Shown: positions 25,672 through 62,630, numbered from the stretch's first letter. The stretch is 64,000 nt of DNA from a virus (IMGVR_UViG_3300010163_000018:9668-73667), one strand, 5' to 3'. Numbers and translations are program-made. Notes: generated from the sequence alone by a model not told the origin.

Positions 25672-26274
25672 ATGACTACAAAAGAACAAATCATATCATC
25701 AATAGATGCTATAGATGAAACATGTTTCTTAATGGAAATGTCAATATATAATACACTGGCTGATGCATATGTCAAATCCTTATTGATTATGGAGAATTAT
25801 GATGGTGATGACATTGATAAGTTCTCTATAATTCAAGAAGGTAAGATTCTTGATAAAACAATCGGCAAAGGGAAAGATGAAAATATATTAACTAAAATCA
25901 TTAAATTTATCCCTCGGCTTATTGGAGCATTAATTGATGCTATAAAGAATTCAATAAATAATTTCCGTCGAAAGAGAGCAAATAAGTCCGTTGATAAAAT
26001 AATCATCAATTCTGATCCCAAAGGAAAAGAACTTCTTGAGAAGGCTTTAGAAGAGATAGGTTGTGTTGGAACAGTTGATGACGGTGTCTTGTCAGTTAGT
26101 CGCATTAAATCCATTGAGAAAGATCTGGCCATTGAATTCAAGGATGATGTGAAATTTAAAATAAGTGAATCAGGCATAATGAAGGTAGTATTTCCTTATT
26201 ATAAAATCGATCAAATCATTGATTTTAATAAAGACATAAACATCAAGATTGTTGGCATAAAAAAAAATGTTTAA
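25672..26274 (+). CDS. Leader-bearing head protein, 5' part of a gene split at an A9 tract
   Basis: Conserved leader ending FSIIQEG, then the amphipathic helix ENILTKIIKFIPRLI; stops just after A9 (26259-26267). Confidence 0.75.
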   Translation: MTTKEQIISSIDAIDETCFLMEMSIYNTLADAYVKSLLIMENYDGDDIDKFSIIQEGKILDKTIGKGKDENILTKIIKFIPRLIGALIDAIKNSINNFRRKRANKSVDKIIINSDPKGKELLEKALEEIGCVGTVDDGVLSVSRIKSIEKDLAIEFKDDVKFKISESGIMKVVFPYYKIDQIIDFNKDINIKIVGIKKNV

Positions 26275-27988
26275 CAAACAGAATTATGACAAACTCGTGA
26301 AGTCACTAAAAGAACTGGATCTGTCATTTAAAGGAATTGCTACAAACCAAGCAAATATAAAAGAGAAATCTTTTAAAGATATAAGTGCGTGGGATGATTA
26401 TATGAACACAGTTCTCGACGCATTTAATACGTTCTCTGATAGACTGTCTGTCATAAAGAAAATGTTTGATGATATGGATACTGACATTGACGGTATGAAA
26501 GCACCATTGGGTTCTTTGGTGGATGATATCAAAAACCTTCTTATCAAAACCCCTAAGGATATCAAGCTTATAACAGAACTTGATAAAACAATACATGAGG
26601 TATACGATGTCCTGACAGATCAATCTGCTGACAAATCGAAATATAAAGATTTCCTGTATGTAATACCCGACACAAAGAATCTTGTCAACATCAATAATTT
26701 TGACAATCATCATATAATTGCCGCCATCAATAAATTTAATGATTTTTATAAAAATGAAATCATTAAAAACGCAGGAAAAGATCCCAATGTTATTGCCAAG
26801 AATTCAAATGCTTTTAAAGAAGCAATTAATGAATTAAATAAACAATTCAATGTGGATATAAAAATAAATACGAATGTTAAAAATCTTGGAATGCAGACAA
26901 CGCCAGGTAAAATGAGAGGTGGATCCTCTCGCCAATTAACTGTCTCTAAAACAAAAGGATTTGATCTTGGTGGTGTAGAGATATTCATTCGTAGTGAATT
27001 ATATACGGATTGTATCCAAATGATTCGTCGTTCAGGAAAAATGATATTTGGGCAAGTAATGTGTAGCAGCATCTGTCATGAGATATTCCATAACATATCA
27101 TTTATGATGTTGCATGGTAATTCTGGTCCTGGTAAACTGTTATCGGCTATTACCAGTTTAACATCGGCTATTTTTGATACAGCTATGACTATCGAAAGAG
27201 CGGTATCACAATTCTTGGCAAAACTCGGTATCAAGTCAGAAACCGTCAAATATGAAAATATGATATCTATTATGATTAAAAATGTAACATATTCATCATA
27301 TGATAAATCATTATTCAAGACCATTTGTGACAAAATATTTGATAAAAAGATAGACGAGGTATCATTGAGAGAAGTTGATGGCATTCGTGAAATTCCTATT
27401 GAAGAATTAAAAAAGATGCCAGTCAATGTCAAGAAAATCGTTACTAAAGTTCTGACAATTGGAGTATTATTATTACTTGCATTAGGACGATCTGTGCCAA
27501 CAGTGATACAAATCCCTGCTGCTATTATTTTGGGACTTAACATTAGCTCACTGCTTGGTGGAATCCCACATTTTAGTCACGATAATGAGGAATCAATGGC
27601 GGATGCATTTGCAGCAATGTATAAATTACCAGTTGTATTCGGGGATACTGCGTTGGAGTCTAAAGATGGAAAGAATCGGTTTAAGTATAATAACACGGAC
27701 AACAAAAACGATGAACACCCCGCAACATATGACAGATCAGTTGTTGGTTATAATATGGCGAAAGAAATACTTAATTCTGGAGAAAAAATAAATCCTGAAT
27801 TGAAAGAATATCTCGAATTCATCGTAAAGGAATTTAACGGAGTTAATAAGGTTGAACGTCGGTTCACCAAGGATCAAATCAATAAATCTGCTCCGGAGTT
27901 CAATTCTAATATAAATTCTGCATTGAATGATTTCATTGCCAAACATAATATATCCGTGACTGAATCATCGTTAATATATGATACGTAA
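26267..27988 (+). CDS. HtpX/M48-like zinc metalloprotease, 3' part of the split head-protein gene
   Basis: HEIFH (27077-27091), hydrophobic hairpin, EESMADAFA (27587), HPATYDR (27716); no SD before ATG 26267; paralog of 61005-62630. Confidence 0.75.
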   Translation: MFNKQNYDKLVKSLKELDLSFKGIATNQANIKEKSFKDISAWDDYMNTVLDAFNTFSDRLSVIKKMFDDMDTDIDGMKAPLGSLVDDIKNLLIKTPKDIKLITELDKTIHEVYDVLTDQSADKSKYKDFLYVIPDTKNLVNINNFDNHHIIAAINKFNDFYKNEIIKNAGKDPNVIAKNSNAFKEAINELNKQFNVDIKINTNVKNLGMQTTPGKMRGGSSRQLTVSKTKGFDLGGVEIFIRSELYTDCIQMIRRSGKMIFGQVMCSSICHEIFHNISFMMLHGNSGPGKLLSAITSLTSAIFDTAMTIERAVSQFLAKLGIKSETVKYENMISIMIKNVTYSSYDKSLFKTICDKIFDKKIDEVSLREVDGIREIPIEELKKMPVNVKKIVTKVLTIGVLLLLALGRSVPTVIQIPAAIILGLNISSLLGGIPHFSHDNEESMADAFAAMYKLPVVFGDTALESKDGKNRFKYNNTDNKNDEHPATYDRSVVGYNMAKEILNSGEKINPELKEYLEFIVKEFNGVNKVERRFTKDQINKSAPEFNSNINSALNDFIAKHNISVTESSLIYDT

Positions 27989-28034
27989 ATATCTATATAC
28001 CAATTCAGATAATTTATGGAGGTGAATAATAAAC

Positions 28035-33164: not shown

Positions 33165-33593
33165 ATGGCAACTACAAAAACATTTTCATTTGCTGCACTT
33201 GCTAATTATGGCAATAGCTCAGCAACACCAGCAGAGAACTTCCAGAAGGCTTTCGTAACTGATGCTAAGAAGTTCTATGCAAAGGCAGGTTATCCGTCAA
33301 AGGATGAAATCGGTATTCTCGATGAGATCAAACCCGATGTATCCAATACGGTTTCTGCAATTCCTGAATTTGTCTCCGGCTTCATGCATGACGAACAGAG
33401 ATCATTCGATCTTCCCGCACCCGATGACAACACGGCACCGGCAACTCTTACAGTTGTTCATGTGCCTGAAAAGACTACTGAAGGTGTTGTGACAATCGAC
33501 GGACCCAACAAGGGTGAAAAGTGGACATCGACTGTCGGCGAGCATGATGAGCTCAAGGTTAAGAACCGCCGCAACAAGTTCAAGAAGAAGTAA
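33165..33593 (+). CDS. Probable HU/IHF-like DNA-binding protein
   Basis: TLTVVHVPEKTTEGVVTIDGPNKGEKWTSTVGEHDELKVK resembles the HU beta-ribbon arm; basic C-terminus; SD AAGGAGG. Confidence 0.5.
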   Translation: MATTKTFSFAALANYGNSSATPAENFQKAFVTDAKKFYAKAGYPSKDEIGILDEIKPDVSNTVSAIPEFVSGFMHDEQRSFDLPAPDDNTAPATLTVVHVPEKTTEGVVTIDGPNKGEKWTSTVGEHDELKVKNRRNKFKKK

Positions 33594-33690: not shown

Positions 33691-33702
33691 GAGGTGATAA
33701 CT

Positions 33703-46519: not shown

Positions 46520-48526
46520 TTAGCCTCCGATTTCAGTTGAACCTGCATCAGCGTCAACAGTCTTAACAACACCAGCCTTGATATCAGGAACGATTTCAGT
46601 GTTCTTGAAGATTACGCGACCCTGGATACCCTGAACTGCGATTGTCTTGTACTGGGATGATGTTGTAACGAGAGCAGCCTGACCACCTGGATTGTTGATA
46701 TCCTGGTAACCAGCATTCTCAGGTGAGTTTGTAAGGTGACGTGCGAAGCGGAGGTGCTTGTTTGTGATGTGGTGAGGATCCATCGGATATGCAACGATAT
46801 TGAGGAAGTACTCTCTTGACATATCGCCCTCAGCAGAACCTTCCTGGTATGCAGGAATAAGCGTGTATGCATCAACACGGTTAGAAGCAACGACACGAAT
46901 AGGAAGATCGGAATCTGTAACAAGGCCGTAGCTGTGATTCATCTTAACGCCGCCGATTTCTGTAGATTTCTTAACAGTCCATGATACAAAAGGATTGAGG
47001 AGTCTGCAAGCCTTAGGGTTGCCGTATACAACGAAGCCGAGGTTTTCAAGCTTGCCGCGGTCACTGAGCTCGTAGATTACAGAATTGATAGCATTGTAGA
47101 TAGCATTTGATCTGTATTCGAAAGGATCACCAGCAAAGCCGGGAGAGATAGATGTAGGACTGAGGTCTACGTACTCTGTATGAGTATAGCTCTCGAGAGA
47201 CCATATATCCGAATCATAGCCGTCGTACATATCAAACTGCTCATCAAGGAATTCAAGAATTGATTCATCCTCGAACAGCTCCTGATTGATGATAAGCTGC
47301 TGAACAAGTCTGTTGTAGAGATTGAAGTTAAGTGAAGTATTAGCTTCAGTAAAGTCTTCCACAGTGAAAGGAACCTGGAATCTGCAGCCATCGTCGATGA
47401 GGAACTTACGGATTTCAGGATACTCACGGAAGCCGATTGTTCTGAGGTTTGTTTCGTTTGAGATAGTGCCGTTTACATAGAGGCCTGTGATCTGACCGCA
47501 TGCAGAAGCTGTAAGAGTACCCTTAACGAAATCAACGTAACCAGAAAGATGATCAGAGAAAGAAACTGTTTCACCAGTATTCTTGTTTGTTTCCGGATCA
47601 ACAACGGGAAGCTTCATGTTCTCAGTAATACCGCCGTTAAGAAATACGCCGCCTGTCTGAATATCAATAGCAATACCAGCACCGGGGAGCTTTACCTTCT
47701 TACCGTCATACTGAATGTACTGAATGTTGAAGTTATAGGAAAGACGAGTACGCAGTGTCTTCTCGAAAGCGCCTGCAGAGCCCTGAGCTGGATACGGTGT
47801 ACCATCGTCCTGGAGCAGGTGGTTGAACATATCATATTTCTTATTAGGTGCATTTTTGATATCATCGAGCAGGATAGGATCCTTGTCATTGATTCTTACA
47901 CCCTTACCAGCGTTATAGAGCTTCTTCCATGTAGGTGTGCCGTCAGGCTCCTTCTGCCAGTATACATGCGGTACTTCATACTCTTCGCCGGTCTGGTTGT
48001 TTACGAGATACTTGATAAGAATACGCTGTTCGATGTTAACAGAGGATGTTGTCTGAACAGGCATAATCTCCTTGCCGAGGAAGCGGATATACTGCTTAAT
48101 CAGTGCCGGGAAGTCGAGAGTTGCAAGAGGAAGATATGTAGATGTATTGTAAGATTCCTGGATCAGGAAGCTCTTAACAGATTCATCCCACGCCTTGTCA
48201 AGCTGATGAGCAACGCTCTCAAGATGATACTTCTCACCGGGATCTGTTGCAGCATCAGCTGCCTCCATGAACTCTTGGAGAATAGGCTGAAGCATCTCCT
48301 CTTTGTATGAATTCATAATGTCGGGATTATCCATCATCTTCTTGACATCTTTTCTGATATCAACGCCGTTATATGCATCCTTGATATTCATTGCAGCTTC
48401 CTGGAAGTTCTGATCGAAAGTATCGTTTAATGCGTCGAGTTCCGCTTCAGATAATGAATTCACCATATTCATCTGCTCCTGGAACCATGTTCCACGAGTA
48501 CCTACTAATGATCTGTTGTAAGCCAT
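46520..48526 (-). CDS. Major capsid protein precursor
   Basis: 668 aa with high-expression codon bias; prodomain ending FLIQE(124)-SYNTSTYLPLATLDFP, then IMPVQT; located downstream of scaffold-like and protease genes. Confidence 0.8.
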   Translation of the reverse strand: MAYNRSLVGTRGTWFQEQMNMVNSLSEAELDALNDTFDQNFQEAAMNIKDAYNGVDIRKDVKKMMDNPDIMNSYKEEMLQPILQEFMEAADAATDPGEKYHLESVAHQLDKAWDESVKSFLIQESYNTSTYLPLATLDFPALIKQYIRFLGKEIMPVQTTSSVNIEQRILIKYLVNNQTGEEYEVPHVYWQKEPDGTPTWKKLYNAGKGVRINDKDPILLDDIKNAPNKKYDMFNHLLQDDGTPYPAQGSAGAFEKTLRTRLSYNFNIQYIQYDGKKVKLPGAGIAIDIQTGGVFLNGGITENMKLPVVDPETNKNTGETVSFSDHLSGYVDFVKGTLTASACGQITGLYVNGTISNETNLRTIGFREYPEIRKFLIDDGCRFQVPFTVEDFTEANTSLNFNLYNRLVQQLIINQELFEDESILEFLDEQFDMYDGYDSDIWSLESYTHTEYVDLSPTSISPGFAGDPFEYRSNAIYNAINSVIYELSDRGKLENLGFVVYGNPKACRLLNPFVSWTVKKSTEIGGVKMNHSYGLVTDSDLPIRVVASNRVDAYTLIPAYQEGSAEGDMSREYFLNIVAYPMDPHHITNKHLRFARHLTNSPENAGYQDINNPGGQAALVTTSSQYKTIAVQGIQGRVIFKNTEIVPDIKAGVVKTVDADAGSTEIGG

Positions 48527-49219: not shown

Positions 49220-52200
49220 TTACCATGATTCACGAGGATGTTTGATCTTAGAACCTGTGATACGCATGTAATTTTCTTCCATTTTACCTTTAAGACGCAT
49301 ATATTCAAATTTCGTCTTAACATCTTCAAGTTTACTGGAATGATCCAGTTCACGTATCTTCTCATTAATGATTTTGAGCTCTGTTTCAAGCTCATGTTGC
49401 GCTTCCTTTTTGAGTCGCTGCTTGTCTGCAAGTTTGAGACCTTGGATACCAGCATATGCAGCAGCCAGATAAGGTTGTAATGTAAACAGGATACCAGTGG
49501 CTCCTAATTTCAGACCAACCCTTGCAGCTTTATATACTGACGAACGATAGCTCGGATTATCAAGAATCTCAGCTTTAACCTGATCTTCATCCCTTTTGAT
49601 AAGGGAATCGACCGTTTTAGTCAGCCATTGTTTGGTTCTGGTAATGGGCTTAAGTACAGCTCTACCGGTATTAGCAACTTTCTGCACACCTTTCTTACCC
49701 TTCTGCTGAAGAGCCAGGGTTTTACGGTCTGCATCCATTGCTTTTGTAAGTGTGTCCTCCTTAGGAGGTTTTCCAGCACCTTCTCCTTTTGACAGGGGCT
49801 CTTTGGATTCCAAGAACATAAACATCTCCTGAATGGTTTGTCCAGAGGATAGTTTCTGTTTACCGTCCTTTTGGGCGATGGACTCCTTAGTGTCAGCAGG
49901 TTCGTTGCTATTATTATTATTGTTAGAACCCTTGCCGATTCCCTTCTTACTTCCACCTTCATTATGTGAGGAATCGTAAGTGTTGTGATGGGAACTGTTA
50001 TTGTTGGAGTCTCTTGTGGTCTTTCCGGTGGAATGATCATCGATGGTTGTTGTCTTAGTATTGTTGGAGTCCTTATTAAAGGAATTGGTATAGTTGTTCG
50101 TTATGTTGACGACAATCTTTCCATCAGCATCTTTCTTGTTCGGATTGTTTTCAAATCCGGAACCGAGCATATCCCCAAGGGTGTCTCCATCAGTATCCAT
50201 TTTAGCATCAACCGAATCAGCAATGTCATCAATGGGATTTGTAGGAACCCCTTCAGGCAGCGATGTTGGAGTAACTGTTGTCCTGAGATCATCGGACATC
50301 TTAAATCGAGTCTTCATGTACTCAGGTATTTCGCCCTTCTCCTGTTCCATTATTACTTGGAAATCGTCAAGATCGATAATACCATACTCCTTGACATATT
50401 TCTGAATGAACTTCTGTCTCATTTTGCAGCCACGTCTTGCCTCGACCAATATTTCGCTCATGTCATCGAGCGCTTTTTCTGCGGCGTTTAACAGTGTTAC
50501 TGGATTTTGTTTAAGCAGTTCTTGTTTTGACTTGAGAAGCTTGCGATAATCACGAATCGATCTTCTAAGGTCGTCAAACATTTTATCAATGTTTGTGTCT
50601 GTTCCGGCACAATATTCCATAGGAGTCGTTCCTATTGATTTACAAGATTGATCAATCTCTTTCTTCAATTGATCATTGCTTTCTTTAATGGACTTTATTT
50701 TCTCGGAAAGACGTTCTGTTTGTTTTGTAAGAGCGTCCAAATCAGCAGGTGATAGACTCTTCATCTTTTTCTTTGCGATTTTTAATTCTTTACGGGCTTT
50801 TTCGTAGTCTTCTAATGCAAAATTTGAATCCAATAACGTCTTTTCATTATCTTTGTATAAATGATTAAGAGCATTGATCGCCGTTCTCTTGGATGTATGT
50901 TCTGCAGCATATTTATCAGCAACATATTCAGTTCGCTGACGATCATGTTCATTTAATTGATTATGCTGTTTGCTGTCTTTAATGAACTTCTTCGCAAGAG
51001 CTTCTTGACCCTTTGCCTTATCCTCATCATATGAAGGATGTGTTGGACAACCGGCCATAACATTGATATGGTCATATGCAATATGCCCTTCTTCGTGTTT
51101 TAAAGCAAAAGCAGATTTCCACTCTTTCTGCTTTAAAGCTTTACGAGTAATATGAATCTCATATTTGCTGGGGTCAATCTTGAAATTTCCGGTTTCTTTG
51201 TCAATAACATAATCACCATTGGGATCCCTGACAATCTGGTTTGTAACACAGGGTCCGTATATTTTAGCTATATCGTCATCGATCGAAAGTTTAACACGCA
51301 TCTTCTCCTTACCACCAGGAAGATCAATGTCAGTTTTGATTGTATCAGTTTTGGGATCATAATCAAACTTCTTGAGCGTTCTCTTGAAATGAGTTTGTTT
51401 ACTCTCCTGGAATACAAATGACTCTTGTGTTGTTTCGCCTTCATTAGAATCTTTCGGTTCTTCGTCAGGTGTAGCACTCTCAAGAGACTTGATGAAACCG
51501 AGCGAAGGTTCTATCCCAAGAATTTCCTTTGCAATAGATGCGACCTTACGGGTATCATTAGATTCCTTGATATTCTTACCGATCAAGGGATTCATCTTGA
51601 TTCCCTTAACAAGTTTGAGCATATCGTCAATCTTCTCTTGAAGATCTTTAAGAATTTCTACATCACTCGAATTGTACTTACCACAAGAACCACCTTTAGC
51701 AATATTAATATACTTTGCAGCCTGTTTAAGATTTCCCATTGTTTCGGACTTGAATATGTTTATACAAGCATTGTTCGTCCACTGTTTCTTCTTACTGAGG
51801 TCTTCGATTGTTTTCATGTCCCTCATAAGAAGTGAAATAGCAGTATTGAGTCTTTCGTTGTTGGTTTTGGTAGTTGCCTCTTGGAATACATAATCCGGGG
51901 AACCATCATAATATGCTTCTCTTACAAAAGATTCATCCTGGAGGAATTCAAGGTCGTCCTTCAGATCAACGATTCTTTTCGCAATAACAGCGATCTCTTT
52001 GACACGGGATTGAATCTTTGTATTATTGAACAGATTCATGTGTTTAGACCAGTTAACTGGGTTAACCCAAAACAGTTTAACACATGCCCACAAGTCACCA
52101 GTAAGATCATTCAAATGGGTCAACGTTTTAAGTTGCTCATTGGTAAAGTTACCACTCTTACCTTTGATGGCCTTCTTTGTCCATTTATAAACCTGCTTTA

Positions 52201-53929
52201 TATCAGTATGACCTTCAGTAGATCCAGTTACATTTGGGAGCAAGGATAACACCATACCAGCAGTTGTTTTGTAACGATGAACAAATGAATTGTTATTCCA
52301 ACGATGCTTCTTATCCATGTCAACGATCTTTTCCATCTCATCCATCAAAGCACTTACAGCCGTCTGAAGATTCTCACGCCTCTTTTCAACACTGGCTTCC
52401 TGGATAAGGTCCTCGAGCTGTTCATTGAGATCGTTAAATGATTCTCCGATATATGCATCGATAAGGAACGGTGACAGATTTGCATTGTACATCTTGTCAG
52501 AAATCGTTTCGATCTCTTTCTCAACAAGATAACCATACTGTTCACAATACATCATATCAGATATTGACATATCGCCGAAGGAACGTAATTCATCAATAAC
52601 AGATTCTGATACTGTTTTCGAAGTTTGTTTTGTGGTATCATTTGTATCGTTACCGGAACCATCATCATTTTTGTATGCTGCCTTGGTCCGAGAGTTCTTA
52701 TTGATTCTGCCTCTTACATCTTTAACGAATCGATCCTCATCATTAGTCGTACCTCCACGTACATTGTGGGCGATATCGAGATATATGCGTGAATCAAATA
52801 TATTGAAAATTGTAAGAAGTGTATTGTTTGAAATAGATGCATCGGGGTCATTGATGAGGTTAAGTTTGAAGAAGTCTTCAATGAACTTGATCGTTCCTTC
52901 CTTGTCTGATTTGAATGTAGAGAACAGATCATATTTCTCAAATCTCTTAGCACCTTTATTCTGTTTGAGAATTGATTCATATGACTTATGGTAGTCTTCA
53001 CACAAAACCGTATCAAACGGAAATTTCTTAGTATTATTGAAGACTTTCACGAGGATATATGGAACTATGTTTTCGTCCAATTTAATACGTGTCCAGAAAT
53101 AAAAGTCTTTACTAAAGAATTTAAGGAGATCTTCTGTTGTATCACATTTACGCAATTCCATAACCAAATCATCGGTAAATTTTTCAAACTCTTTAGATAT
53201 TACCCACTTCTTTGACTTTTCGTTGTACTTAATGTGTTCAGGTTTTGTCTTCTCGAAGTAATTCACTTCAGCAGCCTCTTGAACCGAGTCATCAACAAAT
53301 ATCTCAATGTCAACAAGATCCTGACGGTTGTATACTCTTTCAATCTCTTTTTCTTCATCCATGTCTTCAGGAAGAGAAATGAGATCATTTTTCATAATAC
53401 CATCAACATAGATTTTCTCATCAAAGATTCTCTCTTCGATATCCAGTTCAGGGATCTCATCAAATTTCAAGGGTTCCGAAAAAGTATTGAGAACGTCTGC
53501 AATCTCGGACGGTTTGACGAATGCATTGAACGTGTATATACCGTTGATGAATTTAGTGAAGTCCTCGAAATTGTCAGCAATATGCTGAAGCATCTTGAAA
53601 CCGACATATGAATCAATTGCTCCCGTGAGGGTATCATTATTTGAATTTACAATAGTCTCGTATACTCCATCAGCGGGATTAATATCCTGAATGGTGTCGT
53701 TAATCATCTGGATTACTGCATTCACTTTAGACTCGTCTTCAAGCCATGTAGGATCAACTGTTTCGAGTCGTGTCATTACTCTTTCAACAATCGGCTCAAG
53801 CTGATAGTCCTCGTCAAGAACAGGAAAGTTCCTGACTTTGAATCCCGATTGAATGAATTCATTTAAGCTGTTTATAGCAGTCTGAATACCGGTGAAGTAT
53901 TCATTTTTGATTATAATATTCTTGCTCAT
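49220..53929 (-). CDS. Large head protein / apparent polyprotein with duplicated domain and HEXXH zincin module
   Basis: VQE218, IQE511, FQE684, FQE842, VKE1181/IME1195, FLE1374; two homologous ~160-aa domains; HEEGH(945-949)...EYVAD(1001). Confidence 0.75.
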   Translation of the reverse strand: MSKNIIIKNEYFTGIQTAINSLNEFIQSGFKVRNFPVLDEDYQLEPIVERVMTRLETVDPTWLEDESKVNAVIQMINDTIQDINPADGVYETIVNSNNDTLTGAIDSYVGFKMLQHIADNFEDFTKFINGIYTFNAFVKPSEIADVLNTFSEPLKFDEIPELDIEERIFDEKIYVDGIMKNDLISLPEDMDEEKEIERVYNRQDLVDIEIFVDDSVQEAAEVNYFEKTKPEHIKYNEKSKKWVISKEFEKFTDDLVMELRKCDTTEDLLKFFSKDFYFWTRIKLDENIVPYILVKVFNNTKKFPFDTVLCEDYHKSYESILKQNKGAKRFEKYDLFSTFKSDKEGTIKFIEDFFKLNLINDPDASISNNTLLTIFNIFDSRIYLDIAHNVRGGTTNDEDRFVKDVRGRINKNSRTKAAYKNDDGSGNDTNDTTKQTSKTVSESVIDELRSFGDMSISDMMYCEQYGYLVEKEIETISDKMYNANLSPFLIDAYIGESFNDLNEQLEDLIQEASVEKRRENLQTAVSALMDEMEKIVDMDKKHRWNNNSFVHRYKTTAGMVLSLLPNVTGSTEGHTDIKQVYKWTKKAIKGKSGNFTNEQLKTLTHLNDLTGDLWACVKLFWVNPVNWSKHMNLFNNTKIQSRVKEIAVIAKRIVDLKDDLEFLQDESFVREAYYDGSPDYVFQEATTKTNNERLNTAISLLMRDMKTIEDLSKKKQWTNNACINIFKSETMGNLKQAAKYINIAKGGSCGKYNSSDVEILKDLQEKIDDMLKLVKGIKMNPLIGKNIKESNDTRKVASIAKEILGIEPSLGFIKSLESATPDEEPKDSNEGETTQESFVFQESKQTHFKRTLKKFDYDPKTDTIKTDIDLPGGKEKMRVKLSIDDDIAKIYGPCVTNQIVRDPNGDYVIDKETGNFKIDPSKYEIHITRKALKQKEWKSAFALKHEEGHIAYDHINVMAGCPTHPSYDEDKAKGQEALAKKFIKDSKQHNQLNEHDRQRTEYVADKYAAEHTSKRTAINALNHLYKDNEKTLLDSNFALEDYEKARKELKIAKKKMKSLSPADLDALTKQTERLSEKIKSIKESNDQLKKEIDQSCKSIGTTPMEYCAGTDTNIDKMFDDLRRSIRDYRKLLKSKQELLKQNPVTLLNAAEKALDDMSEILVEARRGCKMRQKFIQKYVKEYGIIDLDDFQVIMEQEKGEIPEYMKTRFKMSDDLRTTVTPTSLPEGVPTNPIDDIADSVDAKMDTDGDTLGDMLGSGFENNPNKKDADGKIVVNITNNYTNSFNKDSNNTKTTTIDDHSTGKTTRDSNNNSSHHNTYDSSHNEGGSKKGIGKGSNNNNNSNEPADTKESIAQKDGKQKLSSGQTIQEMFMFLESKEPLSKGEGAGKPPKEDTLTKAMDADRKTLALQQKGKKGVQKVANTGRAVLKPITRTKQWLTKTVDSLIKRDEDQVKAEILDNPSYRSSVYKAARVGLKLGATGILFTLQPYLAAAYAGIQGLKLADKQRLKKEAQHELETELKIINEKIRELDHSSKLEDVKTKFEYMRLKGKMEENYMRITGSKIKHPRESW

Positions 53930-53930
53930 A

Positions 53931-54773
53931 TTAGAAACCTCCCTCCATAATTATGGAAAGAGCTTCCTTACGAATATCCCCTCTTAACGGAACATGAATC
54001 TTGGACTTGCATTGTTCAAATACAATACTTCCGTTGTCAATACCCATAATCTCATCAGTCGAGAACTGGAAAGCTTCACACACAACCTGCATTGTCTCAT
54101 CCTTCTCGCAACAATACTTTGCCAGTTCCTTAAGGAATACAACAGAACCTTCCATATGTACTGCGGGTTTGATATCTGCTTCTGCACCATCATGCGATGG
54201 AAAGTCCACCATGTCAAACGTAATAACCTTTGACACACTCATATTAGGCTGAGTGGGTGATGCATTAGGAATCATGTTGCCAAGCAAACGAACCGAGAAA
54301 CAAGGTACGGCACCGATATCCATTATTTCAGAATTAACAGATCTACCATTCGCTGTAGCCGGATGCACAACAATATGAGCACGATAACGACTACCCTCAA
54401 GTCGAGGGCGGAATATAAAATGAGAAGAGAGTTCAGGTTCCGGAATAGTCATACGGATGTCTGTTAACTGTTCACCCTTAATGTCCGGATTGGGGTGGTT
54501 CCATTCACCACGCCATTGATTACGGCGAAGAAGATCGCGAATTCTTTCATCTGATGCAATTACAGTATCGATATTATTGCCATCATAACGACGATGCATT
54601 CTGTTATGAACACCAAACGTCATCATTGTTGAATCGAATTCACAGTATGGGAGTCCAGTAGCAGCCGACTTTTTCACAATGTACCCATTAGGAGACAATT
54701 CAGATGATACCGGAGATTCTTGAACAAAACATGCAGTCTCATACTTGTTTGTCTGTGTACTCTTTAAAGCCAT
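53931..54773 (-). CDS. Prohead maturation serine protease (T4 gp21 / phiKZ gp175 type)
   Basis: GEWNHP (H93), CFSVR (S160), TFDMVDFPSH (D187) match the gp21 triad pattern; self sites FVQE19 and HME208. Confidence 0.85.
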   Translation of the reverse strand: MALKSTQTNKYETACFVQESPVSSELSPNGYIVKKSAATGLPYCEFDSTMMTFGVHNRMHRRYDGNNIDTVIASDERIRDLLRRNQWRGEWNHPNPDIKGEQLTDIRMTIPEPELSSHFIFRPRLEGSRYRAHIVVHPATANGRSVNSEIMDIGAVPCFSVRLLGNMIPNASPTQPNMSVSKVITFDMVDFPSHDGAEADIKPAVHMEGSVVFLKELAKYCCEKDETMQVVCEAFQFSTDEIMGIDNGSIVFEQCKSKIHVPLRGDIRKEALSIIMEGGF

Positions 54774-54843: not shown

Positions 54844-54867
54844 ATCATTGGATTGTTTATATGTCGG

Positions 54868-56472
54868 TCACATATTGTACCATGACGAAGAAGTTCCTGT
54901 TGTTTCATCGTCATAATCATCGTCGTCATTGATATCAAAATATGACTCAAGAATGATCTTGCCATCCTTACCAACATTCACACTCTTAATTCCGGGAACA
55001 ATATCTTTACCATTGTTGCCGTAGCTGTTTGCTTTGACAAATTTCTCGTTACCGTCCTTAGAAGTTACCAGTTTGCCGTCTTTAACTGACCAGCTTTTGT
55101 ATTTACCAGTACTCTGGAGGAGTTTAAGAGCTTCGTCTGCAGATACTTCGTCTCCGGATTTATATGACTTCTTTGTATCAGATGAACCGGCGTCACCATT
55201 ATTATCATCAGAGTGTTTAGTTTCATTACCGAAGTCCTTTGCATCTTCTTCCGCTGAAGCGCTCAGATCATCGGTTGCAGGTTGGTCGGCGTCACCTTTT
55301 GATACGCCGTAATCGAGCAGTTTATCCAATTCACCTTCGCTGTTAAAGATATTTTTAACGTGGTTAAAAGCACCTTTGACCAAATCATTGACAGTCGTTG
55401 TGATAAACGATCCCACATTGTTAGTTGCCGTCTGCAGCTGGTTCATTTTTTGCTGGATGGGACCCATTGAAGCAGCCATATTTTTAATTTCTTCGTCTGC
55501 AAATTTTATGTCCCATTTAGTAGCATCACATTCAGGATTCTTCATGACAATATCAATAGCATCACTGGTACCTTTGATAGCTTCATAGATTTCCATCGCA
55601 GTATACTCAGCCGCCTCTGTGGTTACGATCTCATCCGCAGGAATATTCGCAATTGCGTCATACGCTTTGAGAGCAGCATCAACCGAAGCCTCAACTTCAG
55701 GGACCTTTGCAGTCGCTACTTCGGCATTCTTAATTTGCTGACGCCATTGTTTGTTGTACAACTTAATTTCTTTGATCCTCTTGAAATATTCCGGAATCGC
55801 TTTGATTGCCTCGATAATCTTTTTAAAGCCGACGTTGGTTTTGAATTTATTTCCAACAGTTATCTCGAAAATAACCTTTCGACCTTTCAATCCAGACTCC
55901 AGATTTCTGAAGATCTTCTTGAACTTGTCGATTATAGCCTGAAACATTCCTGTCAATTTGTCTCTGTTGATAAAACCAACGAAACCGAGAACAGCAGTAA
56001 GCGCAGCAGCACTACCAATACCAAGTTCCTTAGCATGCTCCTTTACCCATGACTCATCCTTACCGAGAACCTTGTTAACAAAGCCAACGAATGAATTAGA
56101 AACATCTTTAACTTTATTAACAGCCTGTAGTGCCGCAGGTTCGATCTCACCCTTCCAAGCCTGCTTTATGAAAACCCATATCTTTTTAATAAGATTGACA
56201 GGGAACATCAATATCCTGTACCAGAGTTTGTCTGCATGGGGTGACTTCTTTGCATTAGCATCTGATCCGGAGGGATCACCATCAGCAACTTCTGCTTCCT
56301 GGAATATAGAGAACATGTCGAGATCTTCACCGGAATAATTCTCCATAATAGTTACTGCCTTGTCATATGATGCTGATAACGCATCAAATACGGACATCTC
56401 GGATTCCATAACGGTATTGTTTATACCATTAATAGAACTGAGCACTTCATCACGTAATGTTGTATTGTTCAT
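54868..56472 (-). CDS. Leader-bearing internal head (ejection-type) protein
   Basis: Leader ending FSIFQE59-A; amphipathic helix; hydrophobic LGIGSAAALTAVLGFVGFIN; C-terminal IILES plus acidic tail. Confidence 0.75.
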   Translation of the reverse strand: MNNTTLRDEVLSSINGINNTVMESEMSVFDALSASYDKAVTIMENYSGEDLDMFSIFQEAEVADGDPSGSDANAKKSPHADKLWYRILMFPVNLIKKIWVFIKQAWKGEIEPAALQAVNKVKDVSNSFVGFVNKVLGKDESWVKEHAKELGIGSAAALTAVLGFVGFINRDKLTGMFQAIIDKFKKIFRNLESGLKGRKVIFEITVGNKFKTNVGFKKIIEAIKAIPEYFKRIKEIKLYNKQWRQQIKNAEVATAKVPEVEASVDAALKAYDAIANIPADEIVTTEAAEYTAMEIYEAIKGTSDAIDIVMKNPECDATKWDIKFADEEIKNMAASMGPIQQKMNQLQTATNNVGSFITTTVNDLVKGAFNHVKNIFNSEGELDKLLDYGVSKGDADQPATDDLSASAEEDAKDFGNETKHSDDNNGDAGSSDTKKSYKSGDEVSADEALKLLQSTGKYKSWSVKDGKLVTSKDGNEKFVKANSYGNNGKDIVPGIKSVNVGKDGKIILESYFDINDDDDYDDETTGTSSSWYNM

Positions 56473-56537
56473 AGTAAATACTTCCTTTCACAGTAAATTT
56501 GATTTGTTAATCATTATATAAACGTCAAACAAATACA

Positions 56538-57985
56538 TCATTCTTTGTCGTCAGATACATCTCCAACTCCAAATGAATCAGACATCTGGGCAACTGAATC
56601 GATGTACTCATTGACAGCATCAATAGAATTTGTTATTTGCAACTGAGTTTCAAATATTCCACGCAATGTTTGAGAAATATCTTTTTCAACAGGGAAGAAC
56701 TTATCCGTTCTGGAATCGTTCTCAATTCGCTTTTCATAAATATCACTCAACTGCTTTGACTTTTCACACAGTTTTGCTAACTTGATAGCAAACGTTTCTG
56801 CTTGTTTTCCAAATTCTTCTATCGGTTGATATTTTTGTTTGGTATTGGTCTTCTTCGTGAGTGACTGCAGATGTTTGACATAGTTGTTCAAAACTTCAGC
56901 AGCATCAGGACCATTGAATATTATTTTATTTCCTGTGTCATGTTCCCTCTGGGCATCTATGAGAACACCTGTCCTCTTGGCCTTATCATCAACGATGTTC
57001 CGCTTTAATTCTCCTTTTTCGAATTTATAAGCGATGAATTTCGCAGACTGAACAACAAACGATATCGATGCATCGATCCAATTCATCCACATGTCCAAAT
57101 CAAGAGTGACATATAATGTACCAGTCTTAACATCTATTTTACACAGAACCTTTTCTTCAGGTGTTTGCTCATACTTCAGCAGGTGTATGTTAAAGAATTT
57201 CTTGATCGCATTATATAATTTGCTGATAAAATCTATCGCCTTCTCCATCGCTTTTTTACAAGCGTTGGCAACAGCTTCAATTTTTTCTGCTGCTTTATCA
57301 GCAGCGTCAGCAACTTTAGAACCCACTTCACGCATAGGATCTAATACAGTTTCATCAATCTTCTTGAGAATTCGACCACTGTATTCCGAAACTTTTTGCT
57401 GAATTAATTCTTTTTTATTATTTATGAAATATGCTGTTCCACCAATAACAATTGCTCCACCACCAGCTTTAAGACCAAGTCTCATAAGCTTCTCCCTAAA
57501 ATCAGCCCTTTTCAGTTCTTTTCGGATAATTTCCTTCATTTGTTTTGCGTCCACGTTCTGATCCATGATTGTGTAAAACAGTTCAATCTCACCGGGGGGA
57601 CATTTGAGACAAATCAGTATTTATCTTTTTTGCCTGTTTTTGAATCTTTTTAAGCTTTTTCTCTTGAAGCTTAATCGCATGGACTTCTTGAACATGAGCT
57701 ATTAGTCTTGGAATTAGTTTAATAATGCTCTTCAAGATACTCTCTTTAGCACCCGTCTTTTTATCATTTTGCCTAAACTGGAATTTTGGTTTGCCTTCGG
57801 ATACCCCCCCCCTGTGAAGGTATCGTTTGATGTGCCTCTTGGAATATCTGGAACGAGTCTATGTCTTCACCATCATAGTTTTCAAGAATACATAACGCTT
57901 TATCATACGAATTAAATAGTGCTTCTAAAACGTCATATTCACATTCAAGACACGTCTCACTGATACATTCTAATTGTGTCATCAT
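56538..57985 (-). pseudogene. Leader-bearing head-protein paralog interrupted at G9 and C6 tracts (fragments 57773-57985 and 56538-57566)
   Basis: Removing one base from each run gives one 481-aa frame containing KESILKSIIKLIPRLI, homologous to ENILTKIIKFIPRLI of the 25672 gene. Confidence 0.75.
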
Positions 57986-58006
57986 ATGCTAAATCTCACC
58001 CCTCAT

Positions 58007-59200
58007 TTATTTTACATCATTTATACGATACATGATATATGTGGCAACTAAACATATATACGCCTTAACTATGCTTGAATCTACCTTATACTTTTCTGAC
58101 ATAACCAATATAATTGGCTTACCTGCTATGGCCCTGTCAATGGCAGTAGGTAAATTCGTTATTCGAGAAATATATTTAGTAGAATTAATGTCTTCAATAG
58201 AATTTCCCTCTTTTACAATGAATACATAGAATATTGTATCAATGATTCTACCAAGATCCCTGTCATCCACAACTTGGGCAAAGTTGTATAGACTGTCAAC
58301 CTTGACATTTTTTAACCGGGCAATTCCGCTATATAAATTTCCCTTGCTTCGGTATAATTGATCCCCGTCATTTATTCGTCGGACAAGACTTTCTCTGATC
58401 TTGATCGTGTTGTTCGTTTCCAAATATTCATCAGAAGAATCAACATCACCACCAACAAGATTACCATTATCCATATTCGAATAATATTGATTTGCCAATA
58501 ATCGGAGGTTCTGCTGGAATGATGTTCTAACCCGATTCAAAAATTGTACAAGAACATTCGGTGAAACATCCAAATCCAAACGTGTTCTCCAAAACCCATA
58601 TGCAGTTTCGATAGTACTGCCTATCCAATTTATTACATTCTCAGATTTTACCAAGTTCCATGAATTATCAAGATTCATATAAACATATGCCATCGTAGAT
58701 TCTATTGGATGTGGTGGATGGAAAAAATGATTGAATACGTTGTTATATACCGACAGACCCATTTGCTGCCTTGCGGAGTCACGTAATTGACGATGTTGGA
58801 CCATATCGGAATATATAAGAACAATCGAATGGATAACATTTGTAGGATTGGCAACAATCGTTTGGAAAGACGTCTTATCATTAACTGTCTTAAGAATCGT
58901 CTTGACAGTCTCCTTAAAGGTTTTCTGTTCGAAACCAAACATCTTGAAAATGTTATCAACATACATTCGTGGGAATGATACTGCCTTAGTAGGGAATTCT
59001 TTAGATAACATCTCGGAATTTGCTTCAAGGAATTCATTACCATATCTTATGTATTCGGCTCGTTTCTTCGGATGTTCCATAACGCTAATTATCGGATCGA
59101 TTATTGAAGTTTTAAGGGGAGAATCATTGGTATCATTATAAGCTTCCACAAATACGGAAGCCTCTTCTTCTGTAAAAGCTTCTTCTTGAAAGAAAAACAT
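58007..59200 (-). CDS. Probable virion protein with short FFFQE/FVEA leader, function unknown
   Basis: 397 aa; begins MFFFQEEAFTEEEASVFVEAYN; SD GGAGG. Confidence 0.65.
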   Translation of the reverse strand: MFFFQEEAFTEEEASVFVEAYNDTNDSPLKTSIIDPIISVMEHPKKRAEYIRYGNEFLEANSEMLSKEFPTKAVSFPRMYVDNIFKMFGFEQKTFKETVKTILKTVNDKTSFQTIVANPTNVIHSIVLIYSDMVQHRQLRDSARQQMGLSVYNNVFNHFFHPPHPIESTMAYVYMNLDNSWNLVKSENVINWIGSTIETAYGFWRTRLDLDVSPNVLVQFLNRVRTSFQQNLRLLANQYYSNMDNGNLVGGDVDSSDEYLETNNTIKIRESLVRRINDGDQLYRSKGNLYSGIARLKNVKVDSLYNFAQVVDDRDLGRIIDTIFYVFIVKEGNSIEDINSTKYISRITNLPTAIDRAIAGKPIILVMSEKYKVDSSIVKAYICLVATYIMYRINDVK

Positions 59201-59219
59201 CCAATACCTCCCTAACTAA

Positions 59220-59744
59220 TCAACCCTTATTGTTGTTATAGTGGTTCTTCTTCTTGTTCTTCTTGTTACCATTATAATGAGGCTGTGTATCAGCAGCCGG
59301 TACCTCAGCAGATGTTGCTTCTTCAGCCACTACGTCAGTATCAGTAATAACATCCGTTACTTCCTCTGAAGGTGTTTCATCTGCCGTTTCTTCAACTATG
59401 GGTTCGTCCTCTTCAGGTGTAGAATTACCAGGTATATCCGTATCACCCTGATACTGACGGGTTTCCTGTGCAATAACCTCAGGGGCTTCTGTCTCATGTT
59501 CCTCTGTTTTGGTTGCCGGAATTTCTGTTGGCTTCTCCAAAACTGGAGTTGGCCTGATATCGGCATCGAAAACCGCATCGATATTTCTTTTAGTTATGAG
59601 ACCAATGCCGTTTGCTCCATATACTCTTAAATTTGAATAATTAAGAATACGACGGATCAAGGGTTTTTCAAGTTCCTGATTGTATACAGGAGCCAGTTGG
59701 TTGATTCCCGGGATAAGTCCCTTTCCGGTAATGTTTACTTTCAT
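59220..59744 (-). CDS. Small protein with compact N-terminal domain, acidic P/T/E tail and basic N/K end
   Basis: SD GAAAGGAG; low-complexity tail. Confidence 0.65.
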   Translation of the reverse strand: MKVNITGKGLIPGINQLAPVYNQELEKPLIRRILNYSNLRVYGANGIGLITKRNIDAVFDADIRPTPVLEKPTEIPATKTEEHETEAPEVIAQETRQYQGDTDIPGNSTPEEDEPIVEETADETPSEEVTDVITDTDVVAEEATSAEVPAADTQPHYNGNKKNKKKNHYNNNKG

Positions 59745-59784
59745 TATTTTAAACTCTCCTTTTCTTCATACTATATTGAACAAA

Positions 59785-60522
59785 TTATGTTCCATCAACC
59801 GCTTTCTTAACCTTTTCGACACTGTAATATGATTCGGATATGAGATCAGTTTTCAATCCCATAGCCATCAAATACATATCAGCAGCCAACAAAGTTGGCT
59901 TATCGTACGCATTCGTTTTAATATCGGCTAATTTGACAGAACCTGTATTGGCAATAGATTTAAGCATGTTATCATACTCTATAACATTATCGCCTCGAGC
60001 ACCCGATATCTCAGATAAGATAATATCTCCACCAACACCAGCAAGCAGTTCGTTTTCGATACCCGTTGTTGTACCGCCTTTAGAATCTCCCTTGGCTGCA
60101 CCGGTCATATCGTCACGATCATCATCACTCAATGCCAGACCCGTTTTCTTAGTGCTGAATTGCTGGGTTCGTTTAGTATTAAGCCATCCCACGAGGACGG
60201 GTTGCTTTGTTCTTATCGGACGGTTCGGATTGCTGGATACGTGGGGGACGTACACATATTCAAATAATTTTATTCCAATAACATCTGCAGCTTTCTCAAT
60301 ATTCTCAAATTTCAGATTTCGAGAACCATCACCGAATTCCTCTATATCAACACGGAAATTACTTTTCTCATCTTTCAGAAAAGCCTCTATCCATGATTTG
60401 AATTGTTGATCGTTCATCGTTTGGAATTTATTTCGGTATTTCTTTGCATTGATACCTGTCGGATCCAATGCCATCAATGTCTTATCTATCAACGCCTCAA
60501 TATTTTTCCGTTTATCAGTCAT
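59785..60522 (-). CDS. Split RNA polymerase beta subunit, C-terminal piece (probably virion RNAP, phiKZ gp149-like)
   Basis: PVLVGWLNTKRTQQFSTKK, RDDMTGAAKGDSKGG, ENELLAGVG...LSEISGARGDN align by eye to RpoB C-terminal regions; embedded in structural genes. Confidence 0.75.
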   Translation of the reverse strand: MTDKRKNIEALIDKTLMALDPTGINAKKYRNKFQTMNDQQFKSWIEAFLKDEKSNFRVDIEEFGDGSRNLKFENIEKAADVIGIKLFEYVYVPHVSSNPNRPIRTKQPVLVGWLNTKRTQQFSTKKTGLALSDDDRDDMTGAAKGDSKGGTTTGIENELLAGVGGDIILSEISGARGDNVIEYDNMLKSIANTGSVKLADIKTNAYDKPTLLAADMYLMAMGLKTDLISESYYSVEKVKKAVDGT

Positions 60523-60535
60523 TTATATCACTTCC

Positions 60536-61015
60536 TTACAATGCAATCTTTCTGATATATAAGCGATTTAATCTATCATAAGAAATTCCTATGATAACAT
60601 GTGCACTTTCATTACCATATCCAAGTCTCTCAGTTCCGGATACTTCCACAACGAGTGCAGTTATACCATCAGAAGTTTTATCAAATCGAACATCAATATC
60701 GAAACCAACCATATCAATGTAATTACATTGATTTATCAATTTCTCTTTGATTTTACCAGGAAGCTTACGATCATCATCATACTCAAACAGATATGATTCT
60801 ATATCAATTCCGAGTTCGGGGATTGATGGATATTGACCGGGTTTCATAAACAACAGCATCAGGATAGTATTGACACCCAATTCAAAGGTTGATAAAACCT
60901 TTGGCTTAAACATCGAATCCGTATCTAACACAACATCGTAGTTGAGTGTTTGAAAAACTTGAGGGATCCTACCATTGATTTCTTCAAGGTAAATACCTTT
61001 AGTATCAAGAGCCAT
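60536..61015 (-). CDS. gp25-like baseplate/sheath-initiator protein
   Basis: ILMLLFMKPGQYPSIPELGIDIESYLFE matches the gp25 family motif; start reassigned to 61015 after GGAGGTG. Confidence 0.7.
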   Translation of the reverse strand: MALDTKGIYLEEINGRIPQVFQTLNYDVVLDTDSMFKPKVLSTFELGVNTILMLLFMKPGQYPSIPELGIDIESYLFEYDDDRKLPGKIKEKLINQCNYIDMVGFDIDVRFDKTSDGITALVVEVSGTERLGYGNESAHVIIGISYDRLNRLYIRKIAL

Positions 61016-62630
61016 AGTATTCACCTCCATTGATGAAATCATCAGTGAAACTTTCCGTAACAACAACCCCTGTCTTATCCACAAAATTCTTCAATGTTTC
61101 CTTCAAATCCTTTGCTGCTTCCGGATCAAGTTTCTTTGCCTGTTTTCTATCATTAGGATTATCGATATCTTCAATACCTTCATGAAGATCGACAATGTAT
61201 TGGAGATATTTCCTTACCGCCGGTTTTAATTTTTCTCCTGACGAGAGTACCTGTTTAGCCATTCGATACGAAGTCAGTTCTCTGTCAAAGTTCAACGGAT
61301 GTTCATCCTTTGTAGAATTGCTTATCTGTTGATCAATACGTCGCATCTTCTTTGCTTTTTGAGCGTTCTGTTTATTGAGTTTGATTTGCCTATTGAATGA
61401 GCTTAAATGAATAGGGAGTTTATACATTCCCGCAAACAGATCACAGAAGTATTCTTCCTTAACGGTAACACTTATACCAAATAGGGTCATTACTTTCTTC
61501 TTCAACATTGATAAAGCCATGATTGCCATACACACGGTTCCTGCAATGGCAGCGATGGAACTACCAACAATGAAACCAATACCAGCTAACAATATAGAAC
61601 ATACTGCCCCAATGATCTTACCGGTCTTTCCTATATTAACGACTTTTTTGATCAATAGGAGTTGTTCGATATATTTATCCATTTCTTCTTCATTGTTTGT
61701 TTTGTCGGCATTGTTTTGAACATCTGATTCAAACTTTTTAATCGCCGCAGTATTGTCCTTTATCTGGGCCAATACATATAAACGATTAGAAGTCCGTTTC
61801 TTATCAATCTCTTTTTTCTTAATATTAAACATATTCATGAATCTATCAATAAATGATGATATAATCGAAGACGAAGAAACGACATTCTTTGACTCACCCA
61901 CAGAAGATATAGTCTTCTGTATATCCGCGTGGAGTCGTTTGTTTCTAATATCCATCATATGTACAATGTTATGATAAATTTCATGAAGAGTTACTGCGAC
62001 AAAAGATTGACCGAATAACGTCCTATCGGCAGGACATATTTCCAATACCTGACGTGGATTAATGTTCAGAGTAACTAACAACCCACCCAATTGGAAACCC
62101 TTTGACTTAGATATCGTGAGTTTTCCAATATTGTCTCCCGTAGGGAATACGGTTCCAATGCCTTGCTTCTCACTTACATATATTTTGAATTTACAATCAA
62201 ATTGTTTTTCCAATTCATTGAATCCTTCAGCAAATCGACCATTGGGTTTTCTGAATTCATTCCGGACATTTTGTACTATCTCATCTGGATATTTTGATCC
62301 AGGAGCAAATGTATCAATAGCCTTTAATTCACCACGTTCTTGTCTCCTTTTCAACTCATCAAATTCTTCATTAAATGCAACCTTTGAAAATGATTTATTG
62401 AAACATTTGATTGCTTTTAAGATGTGCTTATTTTCAAATTTAAACACATCGAGTTCTTTTGAGGAACCCGGTTTAAAAAACCCTTCTTGGAAACAATCAT
62501 ATTTACTTTCGAGATCTATATCGTCAGAATATTCCATGATCATTTGCTGTTTGATATACATCTGATCAATTGAATTTCTAACTTCATCGATCATCTCGAG
62601 ACTGCATTCATTAATGAATGATAAATCCAT
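61005..62630 (-). CDS. Leader-bearing HtpX/M48-like membrane zinc metalloprotease
   Basis: Diverged leader ending DCFQE49-G; HEIYH (61971-61985), two-TM hairpin, EEYFCDLFA (61440-61457), HPLNFDR; C-terminal VVTES. Confidence 0.75.
   Translation of the reverse strand: MDLSFINECSLEMIDEVRNSIDQMYIKQQMIMEYSDDIDLESKYDCFQEGFFKPGSSKELDVFKFENKHILKAIKCFNKSFSKVAFNEEFDELKRRQERGELKAIDTFAPGSKYPDEIVQNVRNEFRKPNGRFAEGFNELEKQFDCKFKIYVSEKQGIGTVFPTGDNIGKLTISKSKGFQLGGLLVTLNINPRQVLEICPADRTLFGQSFVAVTLHEIYHNIVHMMDIRNKRLHADIQKTISSVGESKNVVSSSSIISSFIDRFMNMFNIKKKEIDKKRTSNRLYVLAQIKDNTAAIKKFESDVQNNADKTNNEEEMDKYIEQLLLIKKVVNIGKTGKIIGAVCSILLAGIGFIVGSSIAAIAGTVCMAIMALSMLKKKVMTLFGISVTVKEEYFCDLFAGMYKLPIHLSSFNRQIKLNKQNAQKAKKMRRIDQQISNSTKDEHPLNFDRELTSYRMAKQVLSSGEKLKPAVRKYLQYIVDLHEGIEDIDNPNDRKQAKKLDPEAAKDLKETLKNFVDKTGVVVTESFTDDFINGGEYYGS

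Follow-up and report, generated by a model that had tools for sequence, protein, structure and literature searches.

A shared N-terminal leader on dispersed genes of an uncultured phage, a candidate propeptide and loading signal of head proteins

Results

Four genes share an N-terminal leader family

The DNA analyzed here (hereafter the window) is a stretch of 64,000 nucleotides, corresponding to bases 9668-73667 of a single virus record of 73,667 bp (IMGVR_UViG_3300010163_000018). Four of its genes, g1 to g4, encode proteins that start with a related leader of about 50 residues ending in Gln-Glu, and three of them lie in a block that also encodes a capsid protein and a putative prohead maturation protease (Table 1). 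An earlier reading of this DNA, referred to below as the original prediction, had taken the leader for a portable signal that targets diverse proteins to the capsid and is then released by a protease. The four N-termini sit exactly where that reading had placed them, their terminal Glu being residue 56, 59, 50 and 49 in g1 to g4, followed by G, A, A and G, respectively. The four genes are dispersed in part only: g1 is indeed distant, but g2 and g3 are adjacent and g4 is 4.5 kb away within the same head block.

Sequence comparison confirms a single leader family for all four genes. The leaders of g1, g2 and g3 match each other pairwise with 52-62 bits and 42-44% identity. The g4 leader on its own is weak (27 bits against g1, and an E value of 0.26 with a hidden Markov model [HMM] built from three sequences), yet it is the top non-self match, and it reaches an E value of 1e-10 with a profile built from 151 sequences, mostly from relatives. 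Leaders of the CFQEG type in related loci are intermediates that bridge g4 to the other three. As had been claimed, the likeness is at the level of protein and not of DNA, the longest exact nucleotide run being 15 nt. Because nucleotide identity is only 57-61%, the four genes are old paralogues. No fifth copy was found in the whole 73.7-kb record with either the three-sequence or the broad HMM. Neither Pfam nor PHROGs holds a model for the leader or for most of the bodies that follow it. The ESM Atlas gave no usable feature match for the query, its structural neighbors being generic helices, and a Foldseek search of the PDB with the g1 model returned nothing meaningful.

The leader is a predicted acidic helix with a sharply conserved end

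The module occupies residues ~5-60, and the match begins within the first 20 residues in 142 of 143 representatives. Its end is nearly invariant. At the site defined by the terminal Glu (P1, Glu in all 143 sequences), P6 is F in 133, P4 is I or V in 130, P3 is F in 134, P2 is Q in 131 and P1' is G, A or S in 130, which gives the consensus F-x-[I/V]-F-Q-E followed by G/A/S. A second phi-x-E/D site (phi, hydrophobic residue) lies no more than 11 residues past the first in 80 of the 143.

Conservation was said to stop at Gln-Glu, which is wrong: it dips in a linker and then resumes in a conserved basic helix carrying the motif IL-x-FIPRLI. Column information across 100 representatives is 2.2-2.9 bits in the leader, 1.45 in the ~15-residue linker and 2.3 at IL-x-FIPRLI, before falling to ~1.0. 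A motif of this type is present in 82 of 143 relatives, at a median of 26 residues past the Glu site, and P0001, one of the proteins found by the leader profile, is 54% identical to the second frame of g3 across 28 residues of this region. The two conserved parts are oppositely charged. The leader has a net charge of -9.9±1.5 over 50 residues, residues +21 to +70 have +5.6 and the remainder is near neutral; in g1, the corresponding values are -9 for the leader and +7 for the linker with the basic helix. An AlphaFold2 (AF2) model of g1 computed from a 126-sequence alignment predicts a long helix at residues 3-42 (predicted local distance difference test score [pLDDT] of 89-98) and a short turn; Gln-Glu then falls in a less confident loop, which is followed by the linker and a second helix at residues 72-109 (pLDDT 87-90). 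Conserved hydrophobic residues of the leader have a heptad-like spacing.

Leader genes are widespread among uncultured relatives and adjoin the protease

A scan of the genome and of relatives with a leader profile, as had been proposed along with the original prediction, found the family to be large outside this record. When 1.84 billion protein representatives were searched with a profile of the four leaders, 348 clusters matched at E≤1e-3, of which 49 also passed E≤1e-10. The leader-bearing proteins are 54-788 aa long and the clusters are all metagenomic; ten that were looked up individually carry no functional name. Homologues of the protease encoded directly downstream of g2 (52-79% identity) were located on 29 IMG/VR contigs, the largest of which measures 258 kb, and leader genes adjoin the protease in 22 of these 29 loci. 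Leader copies were sought along the full length of five of the largest related contigs. A 231-kb relative with terminal repeats (rated 100% complete) has eight matches, while a 258-kb relative (96% complete) and a 212-kb relative (76% complete) have six each; leader genes in relatives are scattered, in addition to forming a cluster beside the protease. The two most distant contigs, whose proteases are 52-56% identical, gave no leader match with the narrow profile.

Searches of cultured phages did not detect the leader at the sensitivity applied. The broad HMM detected nothing in the 41 kb around the capsid gene of the Staphylococcus jumbo phage Madawaska, the nearest of the cultured relatives examined, its annotated prohead protease included (E>0.2), and neither the DNA at positions 54000-63000 nor g4 had a match among the cultured-phage records of INPHARED. 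A tblastn match of g1 to "Listeria phage LM 4-14-1" (E 0.07) was rejected as a chance match to an open reading frame (ORF) without leader motifs; that record is unverified, and the ORF next to the matched one looks like a DNA methyltransferase.

The site that ends the leader recurs in the capsid protein and the protease

The protease matches the PHROG "head maturation protease" families phrog_3014 and phrog_207, and, more weakly, Pfam S77 (E 5e-3). In 24 homologues, a His (in NHP), a Ser (in FSVR) and another His (in PSH) are invariant and represent candidate catalytic residues. The protein also has an invariant KYETACF[V/I]QE followed by [A/S], with the Glu at residue 19, and a second phi/H-x-E site ~75 residues from its C-terminus. 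These sites suggest that the protease itself may be trimmed at both ends; the C-terminal one recalls SPN3US gp245, which undergoes autoprocessing of 64 residues at its C-terminus (PMC10052503).

Sites of the type phi-[Q/M]-E-[GAS] occur at E43, E88 and E124 of the major capsid protein, whose nearest cultured homologues are those of ~260-kb Staphylococcus jumbo phages (22% identity). The site at E124, LIQE followed by SYN, is invariant in 12 relatives (55-72% identity) and marks the exact border between the variable N-terminal ~124 residues and a highly conserved body. The capsid proteins of T4, phiKZ and SPN3US have their maturation site in such a layout (PMC5694885, PMC10052503). A 1569-aa protein of the head module, which has no family match in PHROG or Pfam, carries four such sites and is a possible core or scaffold polyprotein and a possible docking partner for the leader. 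Taken together, the genes assigned to the head a priori (capsid protein, 205-aa protein, 1569-aa protein and protease) contain 11 sites, versus ~0.65 expected, while ~10,000 residues of upstream non-head proteins contain a single one, versus ~1.5 expected.

Proteases of this kind (gp21, gp175 and gp245) cut after Glu, with a hydrophobic or small residue in P3 (PMC9026906). Comparison therefore supports the protease-release part of the original prediction well, because the same motif, Gln-Glu followed by a small residue, is invariant at the boundary of the putative capsid propeptide and is present at the N-terminus of the adjacent protease as well as in the leaders. Cleavage after the leader Glu is what these conserved motifs would predict.

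Table 1. Leader genes, putative head genes and their parts, in coordinates of the window
Feature	Coordinates	Strand	Evidence or content
g1 leader, M1-E56, ends IIQE then G	25672..25839	+	broad HMM, E 1e-20
g1 linker and basic amphipathic helix, residues ~57-109, IIKFIPRLI motif	25840..25998	+	second conservation peak
g1 as one ancestral gene (200-aa ORF and 573-aa zincin-like ORF, HEIFH)	25672..27988	+	P0150 colinear
Major capsid protein gene	46520..48526	-	phrog_20655
Putative 124-residue N-terminal propeptide of the capsid protein, sites E43, E88 and E124	48155..48526	-	motif count 4 vs 0.18 expected
1569-aa head-module protein, four sites (phi-Q-E then A or S)	49220..53929	-	motif count 4 vs 0.29 expected
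Prohead maturation protease, directly downstream of g2	53931..54773	-	phrog_3014, E 4e-10
g2, intact, 534 aa	54868..56472	-	leader, acidic linker, basic helix, hydrophobic segment 149-169, helical body, small beta domain
g2 leader, M1-E59, ends IFQE then A	56296..56472	-	broad HMM, E 4e-24
g3 whole gene, three frames	56538..57985	-	intact orthologues colinear across frames
g3 leader, M1-E50, ends IFQE then A	57836..57985	-	broad HMM, E 2e-23
g4, 541 aa, leader fused directly to zincin-like membrane protein	61005..62630	-	HEIYH, EE-x3-D, hydrophobic segment 336-377
g4 leader, M1-E49, diverged, ends CFQE then G	62484..62630	-	broad HMM, E 1e-10
C-terminal region with V-[T/Q]-E then S	g4, 61005-61100; g1 body, C-terminus of 26267-27988; g2, 54868-54960		also in P0010, P0012, P0047, P0075 and others

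The leader precedes unrelated bodies, in part as a longer cassette

The bodies that follow the leader in the window are two zincin-like membrane proteins (g1 and g4) and two helical proteins (g2 and g3), each with a hydrophobic segment. The g4 body is a paralogue of the g1 body (E 7e-34), and in g4 and its orthologues the leader is present without the FIPRLI basic helix. Across eight homologues of the zincin-like family, H216, E217, H220, E392, E393 and D397 are invariant, and a hydrophobic segment lies between the invariant HExxH and EE-x3-D motifs. These bodies have no sequence match in Pfam, PHROG or PDB, the last of which was also searched with a profile of the family; any assignment of the g1 and g4 bodies to the M48/M56 (HtpX/BlaR1-like) zinc metalloproteases would be tentative, given these motifs but no match to a family model.

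The N-termini and the bodies are shuffled relative to each other. In P0007, another protein found by the leader profile, the first ~110 residues match g1 (44% identity) and are followed by a g3-like helical body, while P0150 and g1 have the same ~110-residue cassette followed by a zincin-like body that is unrelated to that of P0007. The claimed portability is therefore supported, in that unrelated bodies carry the leader, but the unit carried by two of them is the ~110-residue cassette and not the leader alone. When the bodies past the cassette were compared by BLAST, 126 representatives fell into 44 clusters, the largest of which has 48 members and holds the g2 and g3 types. The leader is far more conserved than the body that follows it.

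At the other end of many of these proteins, a conserved V-[T/Q]-E site followed by S precedes a short aromatic tail (WY-x-R, EYYGS). Eight members of the zincin family have V-T-E without exception, and it is common in the g2 subfamily. This region might act as a C-terminal propeptide or provide another docking element, in the manner of T4 Alt. Two further leader-bearing proteins, P0142 (534 aa) and P0146 (518 aa), have a C-terminal DIH-x-x-N-VG ... CFDYG that resembles a kinase catalytic loop, although sequence searches of Pfam and the PDB did not back a kinase reading. A Foldseek search of BFVD with the g2 model found no match at E≤1e-3; its weak top rows are virion proteins of jumbo phages, with template modeling (TM) scores of 0.1-0.2, and were not used as evidence.

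Two leader genes are broken at homopolymer tracts

The original prediction treated g3 as an intact gene, which it is not. A G9 tract (57804-57812) and a C6 tract (57594-57599) break its coding sequence, which is thereby spread over three frames. Intact g3 orthologues of 480-513 aa align colinearly with all three frames, and the two tracts are missing from the DNA of the four intact orthologues that were checked. Similarly, an A9 tract (26259-26267) splits the 200-aa leader ORF of g1 from its zincin-like body, and the intact P0150 (788 aa), which belongs to a cluster of five members on separate contigs, covers both ORFs colinearly (E 9e-47 and 1e-105). Every break would close with one base fewer in the tract (A9, and, on the coding strand, G9 and C6), and all three breaks that were found fall in leader genes. 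Tracts of this kind are rare: G9 and C6 are the only G/C runs of at least six in the 73.7-kb record, A9 is one of only four A/T runs of at least eight, and 501 kb of related loci contain only two G/C runs of at least six. The breaks are either homopolymer errors of assembly or real slippage or phase variation of head cargo genes.

The record is most likely a fragment of a jumbo phage genome

The head module is a minus-strand block at positions 46520-62630, which comprises the genes for the capsid protein, the 205-aa and 1569-aa proteins and the protease, and a split RNA polymerase beta-like gene. A gene of 245 aa that resembles the RNA polymerase beta subunit (59785-60522; phrog_3233, E 2e-43) lies among the head and cargo genes, which fits the packaged virion RNA polymerase of phiKZ/AR9-type phages. 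Since homologues of the protease are found on contigs of up to 258 kb, and since the nearest cultured capsid proteins come from ~260-kb Staphylococcus jumbo phages, the 73.7-kb record most likely represents a fragment of the ~230-260-kb genome of an uncultured jumbo phage, and comparison of its genes makes a distant relationship to AR9/S6/phiKZ-type phages with split RNA polymerases most likely.

A 69-bp direct repeat at the ends of the record (genome bases 1-69 and 73599-73667) gives it the appearance of a circular or complete genome. Relatives with the same head module are nevertheless 212-258 kb in size, and the assembly may have been closed artificially at a repeat with an AT-rich, promoter-like motif. 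Elsewhere in the window, an ORF of 2705 aa (35009-43126) has regions resembling a tape measure protein (phrog_305, E 4e-10) and would imply a very long tail if it is a true tape measure. A T10 tract (33681-33690) lies just upstream of a ribosome-binding-like sequence, GAGGTGA, inside a mechanically called ORF (33514-34635); the gene itself probably starts downstream of the tract.

Discussion

Family membership, N-terminal position, invariance of the terminal motif, gene context and the shuffling of N-terminal cassettes are observed. The reading that we favor, and hold to be reasonably likely, is that the leader is a removable propeptide of internal or ejection proteins of the head that also serves as their loading signal. 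We are fairly confident of its first half, a removable propeptide of head proteins; the second, an address for loading, we regard as evenly poised. Capsid targeting is suggested by analogy with the capsid-targeting sequence (CTS) of T4 and with the propeptide of SPN3US gp47 (PMC5694885), and a place inside the head would suit genes that lie beside those for the protease and the capsid protein.

According to this scheme, the precursor would begin with a strongly acidic amphipathic helix of ~40 residues, as its predicted fold suggests, followed by a short loop that exposes F-x-[I/V]-F-Q-E and then G/A/S. During prohead assembly, the acidic helix could dock the precursor onto the assembly core, by analogy with the T4 CTS. 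A protease of the gp21/gp175 type would then cut after the Glu, and often again 5-6 residues further on, and would trim the capsid protein and itself at the same type of site, judging from the conserved motifs. The acidic peptide would be discarded and the mature protein kept in the head, with the basic amphipathic helix (IL-x-FIPRLI) as its new N-terminus. A bolder extension, which we consider rather unlikely, is that the bipartite cassette of ~110 residues is the general means by which this clade loads arbitrary proteins into the head. The acidic helix would in that case be both an address, pairing with a basic element of the core or scaffold, and a charge mask for the basic helix, and a single protease cut would turn the cargo from docked and inert to free and able to bind DNA or membranes. 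If true, the cassette would be a defined, transferable and structured packaging signal, unlike the short linear CTS of T4.

One close counterpart is the CTS of the T4 proteins IPI, IPII, IPIII and Alt, which is removed by gp21 (Mullaney and Black 1996; reviewed in PMC9026906). Like the leader, it is N-terminal, is common to otherwise diverged and dispersed internal-head genes with varied cargo within one lineage, and ends in hydrophobic-x-Glu, the cleavage motif of gp21-type proteases. However, the two have no sequence similarity, and the CTS is ~10 residues long, in contrast to ~50 for a module with a predicted acidic helix of 40 residues, in which P2 is nearly always Gln, P3 is Phe and a conserved basic helix follows the site. 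Moreover, T4 targeting is an experimental fact, whereas the module described here is known from sequence.

A second parallel is provided by giant phages. SPN3US gp47, gp53 and gp54, as well as internal protein (IP) precursors of phiKZ and 201phi2-1, have propeptides that are cut by gp245 or gp175; these are 111-254 residues long (or 20-24) and are cut at A-x-E or S/A/G-x-E (PMC5694885, PMC10052503), with redundant cleavage sites described in SPN3US and phiKZ (PMC10052503, PMC9026906). The similarities include a jumbo phage genome, a gp21/gp175-like protease, propeptides longer than those of T4 with several redundant sites, a hydrophobic N-terminal segment in the mature proteins (as in gp47) and conserved N-termini common to paralogues (as in gp53 and gp54). 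Such long propeptides have already been proposed to be CTS-like, and in gp53 and gp54 it is the conserved N-terminal 15 residues that were described in this way (PMC5694885). Consequently, the novelty is less than the original prediction implied. The known giant-phage propeptides are, however, not one module across many bodies, while here a single family of ~50 residues with an F-Q-E end spans 348 clusters. What is new is one sharply delimited, structured module that recurs in hundreds of clusters and couples a distinctive F-Q-E site to a basic helix. The leader proteins also recall the Pfam family PF12699 (phiKZ_IP), helical internal-head candidates encoded near head genes in jumbo phages with split RNA polymerases. 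They do not reach its threshold, the best scores being 19-22 bits (cut-off 27), with 2 of 100 members at E≤1e-3, and the matches fall in different regions of different proteins.

Several points weigh against the propeptide and loading reading. Cleavage, presence in the virion and targeting of the leader proteins are what we infer, and the lineage is uncultured. Approximately 80% of SPN3US head proteins are uncleaved, and some phages retain homologous propeptide regions (PMC10052503, PMC5694885), so that a conserved motif is no proof of cleavage. The protease scores 22.6 bits (E 7e-5) against Pfam S80 (phiKZ gp175), below the cut-off of 23.4, and has no sequence match in the PDB. The deep AF2 model of g1 has a predicted TM score (pTM) of 0.33 and does not define how its two helices are placed relative to each other. 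In a shallow-alignment model of g2, the leader has pLDDT values below 50 and the linker (residues 59-82) is disordered; both features would also suit a segment not packed against the body of its own protein. Finally, since a single BLAST cluster of 48 of the 126 bodies includes both g2 and g3, much of the diversity of bodies may reflect fast divergence of paralogues in one helical family rather than truly different cargo.

In the main rival explanation, which strikes us as unlikely, the acidic helix serves as a prodomain that masks or inhibits and that the protease removes in the prohead. Until then, it would neutralize the basic helix of the same chain, or keep membrane-active or zincin-like bodies inert in the cytoplasm, while loading is steered from elsewhere in the protein, such as by the basic helix or a C-terminal tail. 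The opposite charges of the two helices (-9.9 versus +5.6), both of which are conserved and move together as one cassette, would fit masking, and the bodies do have hydrophobic segments and HExxH motifs; V-T-E followed by S and the aromatic tail would offer an alternative docking element. However, the FIPRLI helix is missing from g4 and its orthologues, which do have the leader, so the leader has a role that does not depend on that helix, and no confident packing between the helices is seen in the AF2 model (pTM 0.33). Masking is, in any case, compatible with targeting and does not exclude it.

Still less probable, in our view, is that the leader is never cleaved and forms a permanent N-terminal domain throughout a single large family of paralogous internal head proteins. 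It might, for instance, be a coiled-coil element for oligomerization in an inner-body-like structure, and F-Q-E would then be structural. A single long helix with heptad-like hydrophobic spacing would suit this role, as would the many helical bodies joined in one BLAST cluster, the weak sub-threshold matches to phiKZ_IP and the propeptide regions kept in some giant-phage homologues (PMC5694885). It would not explain why the P1 Glu is invariant and P1' small, why tandem second sites are common or why conservation drops right past the site; nor would it account for an identical motif at the capsid maturation boundary and in the protease, or for the presence of the module on a non-homologous zincin-like body. 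A sorting signal to another destination (secretion, membrane or a phage-nucleus-like compartment) is very improbable, since, despite a strictly N-terminal module and a split RNA polymerase beta-like subunit as in nucleus-forming jumbo phages, the leader is highly acidic without the hydrophobic core of Sec/Tat signals, its genes lie amid those for the protease, the capsid protein and other head proteins, and its terminal motif equals the capsid-protein site.

Giant phages package and inject dozens of proteins, and how they pick them is poorly understood; in SPN3US and phiKZ, long propeptides are the suspected address, yet no common signal has been defined. For custom capsid loading, which the original prediction had envisaged, practical use is limited until a member of the clade is cultured, but the module is a concrete construct for testing in vitro. 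In the lineage described here, this single module marks a candidate set of cargo, of six to eight genes per near-complete relative, and predicts a protease specificity of phi-Q-E followed by a small residue. Such a rule, read from sequence, would allow the packaged proteome of this uncultured clade to be predicted.

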